A DNA stretch of 64,000 nt from Carcharhinus amblyrhynchos (taxonomy: Eukaryota). The position numbers and the translations under genes were made by a program. Shown piece by piece: positions 44,616 through 46,529 of the stretch (positions are counted from its first letter, which is position 1; each line of letters starts with the position of its first letter). The notes beneath the pieces are model-generated. The model was given only the letters and a program-made list of their open reading frames with translations. It was not told the origin of the DNA and did no database searches. Where the stretch lies: the NCBI GenBank assembly GCA_965287045.1, contig OZ336886.1:23622001-23686000 (forward strand), written 5' to 3'.

Positions 44616-45614
44616 CTACATGAACAAATCACTGGTCCTTATAAGTGTTTAAACAATCACCCCCTCCTGTCCTAACACCAGCCAAGAGTTTTTTTTAAAT
44701 TACATTAATCCTTTGAGCACTTACGGTTCAGTAATCATATTCAGAAATTTGAACAAAGTAGCAGTTTGGATGGCAGATATTGTGAGTGGAAGGAAAAAAA
44801 CACTGATTTGAATGTTTAGTTTTAATACATTTACAATTTTTCAGGTAATGTTCTATTTTCTTCTTTTATTTCCCCAATTGTCCCAAGACCATATTCTTCA
44901 CCCACTGGTACATATAACTTCTACTTCAATCTAACAACTTTCAATGCTAGATGAGGTTGCACTTCCCTCACAAAGCAATAACTGAGTCGTGCCAGATGCT
45001 AGCCAGCTGTGGGCAGAGCTCACAAGGGAGACCTTCAGCTAAATGAGTCTTGCTATCATGGTTCCCCTTTGGCAAGGAACTGAACTCAGTTTTTTGCTGA
45101 CATAGCTCCAGAATTACCACAGCTCACATTCCGAAAAAATTCTGCTACACTTTCTCATAGGCATTCCCTTACTTTGCCCCAAATCATGCTTCACTTTTCC
45201 CAATATTGATGAAATTATATCTAACAATCTCCCTAATGTTAAAGACCATCATGTCTTTCCTTGGTGTCTCCTATCGTCTGGCTCATCAATCCAAGCCTCC
45301 AATTTGTACACTGGTAGTAGTATATTTTGGGAGATTGAAGTGACATTTCACTGTGTTATCTGTATTCTGATTCCCCATTAAAAGTAAATAAAGAGGATGA
45401 AGGTCTCTGTGCCATCCTATGAAAGAATAAGACTGTGACTTAAATTTCACCATGACAGGACATCCCATGTGTTTTACAATTAAATACTTTTAAAATGTAG
45501 TTGCAGATATCAAGTAAAAAATACAACAGCCAACAGAGCAATCTCCTATAAACAGCAGAATTTCTGATGATGTCTCACAAGTTTACTATTGGACAAGATA
45601 CCAGGAAGGAGGAG

Positions 45615-45945
45615 GCGATGCTATAGTGGCATTGTCAGTGGGCTAAAATTTCAGGCAATACTCTGGGCACTTGGGTTCAAATCCCACAAAGGCAAGTGGT
45701 GAAATTTGGATTCAATAAAAATCTGGAATCAAAAGTCTAATGTTGACAATGAAATTGTCATAAAAACCCATTTGGTTCACTAATGTCCTTCATGGAAGGG
45801 AATCTGACATCCTACCTAGTCTGACTTATGTGACTCCAGATCCACTGCAATGTAGATTAAATGCCTCCTCAAGAGCAATTAGGGTGGGTAATGCATGCTA
45901 GTCCAGCCAGCAACGCTAATGTCGTATGAACAAATTAGAAAAAAA
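45615..45945 (+). mobile_element. tRNA-SINE, second family
   Basis: B box gggttcaaatccc; homologous to 36826-37160. Confidence 0.8.
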
Positions 45946-46126
45946 TTTAAAAGAATTCTGCTACTCTTCTTCACAATGTTTTGGGATATTTTACTCCCAC
46001 CTGAGAGCGTGCGGTTTGGGTCTCAGTTCAACATCATACCCAAAAGATTGCACCTTCAACAATGCAGCATGGAATGTATAGATGCAGTACTGCATGGAAA
46101 TGCCAGGGTAGATTTCGTGACTTAAA

Positions 46127-46416
46127 GGCTAAGATCAAGTGTAGTATCGACATGCTGTACTTGATTGAAGTCATTAAGGTTACATTTTAGCTTCATTTGA
46201 AGCAATTTTTAAAAGCGGCATCTCGGCCTTTTGGCTAAGATGCAAATTAGATCAAGCCTTGGAGGAGGAGCTATACCTACTCCAATCAGCTTGGATCATG
46301 TAGATCAAGCCCAAGACGGGAGGTGAGAGCCCAGTCTTGTCAGCTTGGATCGGGAATGTCTCAACTTGTTGGGACACTGAATTGGACTTGATTTGATTGA
46401 ATTGGATAAAAAAAAA
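46127..46416 (+). mobile_element. U2 snRNA-fragment-headed, poly(A)-tailed retroposed element
   Basis: 46127-46148 equals U2 nt 19-40 exactly; 46221-46241 equals U2 nt 7-27 exactly; A9 tail at 46408-46416; interrupts an older minus-strand SINE at cttaaa|ctgtaaccttctgactcag. Confidence 0.75.
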
Positions 46417-46529
46417 CTGTAACCTTCTGACTCAGAAGTGAGAGTACTACTTACTGAACTGTAGTTGACACATAGAGAATAAAATCTGGACACCAGAAAG
46501 CACTCCTTAAAAGAGAGCAAGACCAGATG

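Follow-up and report, generated by a model that had tools for sequence, protein, structure and literature searches.

A U2 snRNA-headed short retroposon family in a shark genome and its likely partnership with a U2-targeting Keno LINE

Introduction

How does a piece of DNA that opens with U2 snRNA sequence and ends in an A tail come to lie inside an older, unrelated repeat? The question is raised by positions 46127 to 46416 (+ strand) of the window, as we call the whole stretch of 64,000 nucleotides of Carcharhinus amblyrhynchos DNA analyzed here. A sequence-only reading of this locus had proposed a short parasite that resides in U2 genes, is co-transcribed from the U2 promoter and landed off-target at this position. 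Published work bears on such an element. The transcription of SINEU, the snRNA-headed SINEs, is named as an open question (PMC4494074) and stated as not demonstrated (PMC5786205), and the LINE Keno inserts 37 nt from the 5′ end of U2 (PMC6136364).

We find that the locus is a 5′-truncated copy, belonging to the youngest layer, of a non-coding U2-headed short retroposon family. The family is real and abundant, and is probably now inactive. We consider it probable that it was copied by a U2-targeting Keno LINE and transcribed from U2 promoters by source copies residing inside U2 genes.

Results

Anatomy of the window copy and its insertion site

As reference we used the genome's own U2 gene (locus L031), obtained by a search with Rfam RF00004. 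Against it, the U2 nt 19–40 head described in the sequence-only reading is exact, and so is the second U2 piece described there (nt 7–27), which extends to 23 of 24 matching positions when 46218–46241 is set against U2 nt 4–27. The copy is not collinear U2, again as claimed: it scores 24.8 bits in Rfam against a cut-off of 46, and only nt 19–40 and 4–27 match, for which reason a U2 processed pseudogene was rejected. The A9 tail is present, and the body is structured (z = −5.0; 0/200 shuffles fold as well). One description had to be replaced, that of a stretch of about 70 nt of "non-U2" sequence, which is made up of a predicted fold-back arm and decayed U4 sequence (Table 1).

Table 1. Features of the U2-headed copy and of the repeat that it splits (window coordinates)
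Feature	Position	Strand	Detail
5′-truncated family copy, youngest layer	46127..46416	+	starts at nt 19; 96.6% identical to family reference over nt 19–308
Head: U2 snRNA nt 19–40, including branch-point pairing sequence and Keno cut site between nt 37/38	46127..46148	+	22/22 identical to genome's U2
Fold-back arm, predicted partner of head (15-bp stem plus 4 bp), masking branch-point sequence	46152..46172	+	MFE and centroid agree
Decayed U4-derived segment: U4 nt ~20–47, then piece resembling U4 Sm-site region	46166..46210 (approximate limits)	+	recognizable only via older layers
Internal U2 piece, nt 4/7–27; predicted U2 stem-loop I fold clamped by extra pairs	46218..46241	+	in all three layers
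Body hairpin 1 (predicted)	46250..46297	+	
Body hairpin 2 (predicted), duplicate of hairpin 1 with different upper stem	46303..46351	+	
Short 3′ hairpin (predicted); U-A/C-G compensatory pair between layers	46358..46375	+	16 UA, 10 CG among 30 rows
3′ end: poly(A) signal (this copy minus one A) and A9 tail	46400..46416	+	A9 = 46408–46416
Old dispersed repeat, upstream half, split by insertion	45945..46126 (outer limit approximate)	.	8 other copies at 71–90%
Same old dispersed repeat, downstream half	46417..46470 (outer limit approximate)	.	alignment across junction

The flanks belong to one old dispersed repeat, continuous across the junction in 8/8 other aligned copies, so the claimed splitting of an older repeat stands. 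The tt/aaa insertion site that had been read here is unsupported, since the AAA before the insert aligns with letters of the host repeat and is thus evidence neither for an L1-type TT/AAAA site nor for a real target-site duplication (TSD). A tRNA search found no tRNA in the host repeat, which may be a SINE, perhaps SacSINE1-like. Another old repeat lies just upstream of it (45600–45930), and a distant Keno/Tx1-like ORF2 fragment (66% over 328 nt) is located at 2128–2436 of the window.

Size, spread and 5′ ends of the family

The family unit is ~310 nt long; full-length copies begin at U2 nt 1 and have U2 nt 1–40 as their head. A genome-wide search with a 22-mer from the body (≤2 mismatches) yielded at least 4,640 copies and a control yielded 1. 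A DNA search returned 3,602 candidates, and the 40 that were scored, self match aside, were all 92–96% identical. Individual copies were analyzed in a sample of 92, drawn from 89 loci among the first 100 listed positions of contigs C1 and C2; the mean identity in this sample is 94.5%, in a set biased to well-kept copies because it was chosen by exact match to the 22-mer.

Copies in the sample start at U2 nt 1–6 (n = 38), nt 7–40 (n = 34), nt 41–110 (n = 11) or later (n = 9). Many copies with the U2-nt-40 junction and variable 5′ truncation inside U2 had both been predicted, and both are seen here, with 72/92 copies starting within U2 nt 1–40. A single-copy sequence or one lacking a conserved junction, named beforehand as contrary outcomes, did not occur: the copies number in the thousands and the U2 junction is fixed. 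The 38 copies that start at nt 1–6 have no common sequence farther upstream, and inspection by eye revealed no common flank among the 92. Under loose rules, TSDs were scored in 26/92 copies and in 9/275 controls, some of them being tail artefacts. The target-site logo contains only a weak T after the tail (47/81 for the family, 15/30 for Keno) and is not diagnostic.

Most copies, including that in the window, are dispersed, and U2 follows the copy in 0/92 of the sample. The family body was absent from 402,266 scanned bases of current variant-U2 arrays, which hold 518 intact genes, and from the fetched parts of the main U2 array save for one decayed copy, L099. Every one of the 29 bins of the window copy is represented in contigs from 4/4 public runs, which bear the labels of four other organisms; this attests presence and not transcription. 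Some family copies exceed the Rfam U2 cut-off (51.6 and 51.0 bits versus 46), and such copies are liable to misannotation as U2 genes.

Two kinds of complex arrangement were observed among the copies. Three loci (L297:876-2215, L290 and L296) are tandem stacks of family copies, youngest first and oldest last, with short TSD-like spacers between them; the last copy in L297 is U1-headed. Four others (L164, L180, L187 and L122) contain inverted 5′ parts or head-to-head pairs resembling the products of twin priming.

Older layers, further snRNA donors and predicted RNA fold

Two older layers of the family are 85.5% and 79.2% identical to the young consensus, and identity to the layer's own consensus among the best-matching copies is 91.7% (20 copies) and 90.6% (30 copies), respectively. 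The head lengthens across the layers, from U2 nt 1–35 to 1–37 (the Keno cut) and then to 1–40. About 10 of 30 oldest-layer loci carry instead a U1 head (nt ~1–95 or 5–37, confirmed by comparison with the genome's U1), over which they have their own predicted arm (U1 nt ~6–28; z −5.7). A search for A-tailed insertion near U1 nt 93 gave 0 matches. The oldest-layer consensus is identical to the genome's U4 nt 23–47 at 22/25 positions (0/300 shuffles); the U4 match is weak in the old layer (6/300 shuffles) and not significant in the young one (182/300). The U1 and U4 pieces are unexplained by U2 targeting and no U1-site insertion was found, so template switching also occurs. A canonical Sm site in the U4-like piece was rejected, the G after the U run being absent. 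At four oldest-layer loci (L333, L334, L339 and L345) the head is of a further type, in which a short repeated motif separates U2 1–35 from the U4 piece.

Predicted pairing between head and arm grows with the head, covering nt 26–36 in the old layer and nt 25–39 in the young one. Among the 38 near-full-length copies that keep the branch-point sequence intact, its mean unpaired probability is 0.03; in the fold of the U2 gene, nt 34–38 are unpaired with a probability of about 0.9. The arm is thus predicted to hide the branch-point sequence of the head. We had considered the whole arm to be an inverted U2 duplicate with only G-U-compatible changes (7/7 transitions), and dropped this reading because the distal half derives from U4, itself complementary in part to the U2 head. 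In the body hairpins 90% of cells pair, and 11/51 pairs change on both sides, equalled by 61/500 shuffles, which amounts to modest covariation. On decayed copies RNAalifold prefers cross-pairing of the two hairpin repeats. U2 stem-loop IV was rejected as the origin of body hairpin 1, because no U2 match is left after the head is excluded.

A Keno-type LINE in the U2 gene arrays

A Keno-type Tx1 LINE (L108/L249) is present in the genome; some of its copies look intact, and its target lies just before U2 nt 38/39. It has two ORFs, a CCHC ORF1 and an APE-RT ORF2 (Pfam PF03372, PF00078, PF13966, PF00098). ORF2 returned 90 homologues, none named Keno, with the best at 46–48% over long stretches; the named match of highest identity (69% over 8% of the query) belongs to Heterodontus francisci. 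When the genome was searched for A tails with U2 from nt 39 onward behind them, 119 overlapping matches were obtained, mainly in U2 arrays. Across 402,266 array bases, the Keno 3′ junction is at U2 nt 38 in 44/46 downstream pieces, and 45/50 upstream pieces end at U2 nt 45–59, marking the 5′ junction. The 847 Keno 3′ ends counted in 2.9 Gb are mostly dispersed, hence the target specificity of Keno is relaxed. The array insertions inspected included no Utopia element. One dispersed truncated Keno (L225) carries U2 1–52 together with ~18 nt of upstream flank.

Several features of Keno and its targets were recorded alongside. Full-length Keno copies (L249:1468-3057, L239, L242) begin with U2 nt ~2–56, some with two U2 heads, and at dispersed sites too. 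In one Keno variant (L240, L209, L280) the 5′ UTR is shorter and a hairpin-forming stretch comes directly after the U2 head. A patch antisense to U2 in the Keno 5′ UTR was rejected as a common design (7th–8th of ~1,070 windows; 124/300 shuffles as good). The unit of the main U2 array (C45) measures 10.5 kb. A second type of U2 gene, ~87% identical to main U2, forms a 407-bp tandem array (G000 C98, C334, C734; L042-L060, L250-L289), and roughly 1/12 of its genes in the scanned part contain a Keno insertion. In a U4 gene cluster (G000 C3:40384110-40384246) a Keno 3′ end adjoins a U4 match, which may mark an insertion of Keno at a U4 gene.

Family copies at the Keno target site

Five family copies run into U2 from nt 38/39. 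The tail is followed by U2 39–126 in L061, by 38–112 in L062 and by 39–50 in L111; L241 continues into U2 38–114 and has U2 6–46 in front, and L094, located within a relic variant-U2 unit with a Keno fragment behind it, continues into U2 39–45. Conversely, nt 37/38 is where four family heads are themselves interrupted: another family copy lies there in L234, L362 and L363, and Keno in L366; all 3 loci from one of the searches show this arrangement. Copies inside U2 loci had been predicted, and some copies indeed lie in U2 sequence, with the U2 remainder after the tail or the upstream flank in front. The suggestion that the internal U2 piece mimics the target is unsupported: this piece is without the cut site, and the head is the part that is re-cut.

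Family and Keno are also found side by side. A family copy lies within ~25 nt of the Keno 3′ end at 4/30 Keno ends, and where an A run immediately precedes a family copy (8 sampled cases), the run is a Keno tail in 4, a family tail in 3 and other in 1. The two samples have two family-Keno pairs in common. A rough expectation from the counts puts chance adjacency of the two well under 1 in 10,000 per copy. A 3′ end common to Keno, by contrast with the other predicted supports, was not found: there is no real homology beyond a short AATAAAGT-type motif, the best blastn E value of the family against the 4.9-kb Keno is 0.63, and no homology to the Keno 5′ UTR was detected beyond U2. With no 5′ or 3′ homology outside that motif, the family was rejected as a deletion derivative of Keno. 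The same target site and tandem insertion together make Keno a well-supported partner of the family, and the genome's Keno (Tx1-clade) LINE is likely to have copied it, with the LINE at L108/L249 the likely helper.

Linkage to U2 promoters

A search for double heads gave 13 matches, continuing into family sequence in 9 cases and into Keno sequence in 4. The additional stretch of U2 stops at nt 46–61, the range of Keno 5′ junctions, and in L237 a TSD encloses the whole double-headed unit, which therefore moved as one piece. Two copies are positioned behind U2 upstream sequence. In L234 a family head directly follows ~250 nt of variant-U2 upstream spacer (167/201 aligned positions match a relic spacer), with older family copies in tandem behind the head. 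L099, in the main U2 cluster, consists of main-type upstream flank, U2 1–14, a reversed ribosomal protein S13/S18 pseudogene and then the remainder of the element; the processed pseudogene within the head of this promoter-linked copy occupies L099:3945-4376. A motif from the relic flank had 6 matches, 5 of them variant-U2 relics, with the family in 2 and Keno in 3. Since decay has brought the promoter-linked copies down to ~90% identity with the reference, none of them is established as a source. Extension into upstream flank was rejected as a common feature of the family (only 2 and 3 matches, with one real flank, L234).

The copies contain T5–6 runs (46206–46210 in the window), AATAAA and an A tail, which fit Pol II and not Pol III (an argument made likewise in PMC4494074). 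No Pol III promoter was found: the tRNA search gave no tRNA, and Rfam gave no tRNA, 5S or 7SL match. A classical Pol III SINE was rejected for want of a tRNA, 5S or 7SL head. From these arrangements we strongly infer that the family is transcribed from U2 gene promoters by source copies inside U2 genes. The parasite model of the sequence-only reading is thus supported, with three of its four predicted supports found and promoter use probable.

Discussion

The mechanism that we propose as probable, copying by Keno and transcription from U2 promoters, would run as follows. Pol II would transcribe a source copy within a U2 gene starting at U2 +1 and ending at the copy's own AATAAA, which would make the head the 5′ end of the host gene. 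Keno ORF2p would then copy the A-tailed family RNA, mostly into relaxed sites such as that in the window and on occasion into U2 genes again or into heads of the family itself. Such re-insertion would renew promoter-linked sources and add heads. The predicted arm-head pairing may hide the branch-point sequence and keep the chimeric RNA out of splicing. A more specific version, which we offer tentatively and hold somewhat less probable than its negation, treats the family as an snRNA-gene parasite whose head serves at once as promoter-given 5′ end, helper landing site and masked splicing-active sequence, with the arm lengthening along with the head, independently for U1 heads, and a re-insertion ratchet renewing promoters and stacking the heads.

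The strongest competing account, though in our judgment an unlikely one, follows Kojima's SINEU model: Keno moves the family, heads arise by template switching onto free snRNAs, promoters upstream are met by chance and U2-site insertions are by-products. U1 and U4 pieces built into the older layers, with no sign of U1-targeted insertion, agree with it, as does the absence of the family from the current U2 arrays scanned, and PMC4494074 argues in its accessible text for recurrent template switching. However, switching onto free snRNA does not lead one to expect extra U2 heads that end at nt 46–61, matching the Keno 5′ junctions at nt 45–59, nor the pile of starts at nt 1–6 without a common upstream extension, nor copies behind both kinds of U2 upstream flank. 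Mobilization by another poly(A)-dependent L1/Tx1 family, with the Keno neighbours explained by insertion into A tails, is very improbable. The family's 3′ end is not common to Keno and most copies are at non-U2 sites, as this account would have it, but 7/8 upstream A runs are Keno or family, and an A-tail preference would not yield the exact nt 37/38 junction at 9 loci. That there is no family, only independent U2 chimeric pseudogenes or an assembly artefact, can be practically dismissed: truncated U2 retrocopies are common in vertebrates (PMC4494074), but one fixed junction and body recur in at least 4,640 copies (control 1), and contigs of 4/4 runs labelled as other organisms cover all 29 bins.

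With copying by Keno and residence in U2 genes as the preferred reading, helper LINE, target gene and passenger are together in one genome, and every step is represented by copies: some lie in U2 sequence, some follow U2 upstream flanks, some are double-headed and some adjoin the helper in tandem. This makes promoter borrowing through residence in the target gene directly testable. The family extends snRNA-headed SINEs to a second vertebrate lineage and adds U4 as a third donor, and the predicted fold points to masking of splicing-active sequence as a possible design rule. If true, the reading of the family as a parasite in snRNA genes would explain SINEU-type transcription and the repeated gain of snRNA heads, far from crocodilians.

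Comparison with known systems

One of the known systems to compare is Keno itself. The U2 3′ junction is identical (PMC6136364, PMC4640811), and in this genome U2 heads are likewise found on full-length and truncated Keno copies, doubled on some; the family differs in being non-coding and in having no body or tail homology to the genome's Keno. Utopia (PMC4640811) has the same U2 target junction, with downstream U2 from nt 39, and its specificity is relaxed in reptiles, but it possesses a restriction-like endonuclease whereas the LINE in the U2 arrays here has an APE domain. As described for R2 in 28S rRNA genes (PMC4494074), co-transcription with the target RNA gene would take the place of an own promoter; R2, however, is autonomous and releases itself by a ribozyme, whereas the family retains the 5′ end of the host gene as its head.

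The closest parallels in design are SINEU-1, -2 and -3, which come from crocodilians, with none found elsewhere according to the accessible text of Kojima 2015 (PMC4494074). The published papers searched contained no snRNA-headed SINE from sharks, and the accessible text of PMC5499810 makes no mention of snRNA or SINEU. Like SINEU (PMC4494074), the family is <500 nt long, has repeatedly added U2- or U1-derived heads and has a poly(A) tail and internal oligo-T; it has no tail in common with a LINE, its probable Tx1-clade partner is indicated by a common target, and it forms tandem copies separated by TSDs. Of the features that define SINEU, we observe the U1/U2 head, a short, non-coding, poly(A)-tailed multicopy unit of fixed structure and oligo-T without a Pol III promoter, and, indirectly as in PMC4494074, mobilization by a Tx1-clade LINE through a common target. 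The crocodilian partner, Tx1-Mar, clusters with Keno (PMC4494074). In contrast to SINEU, whose partner targets a Mariner (PMC4494074), the partner in this different lineage still targets U2 genes, and some family copies occupy the U2 target position or follow the upstream flank of a U2 gene. The U4 segment and the predicted head-masking arm are further apparent differences, neither being mentioned in the accessible text of PMC4494074. The family is therefore SINEU-like.
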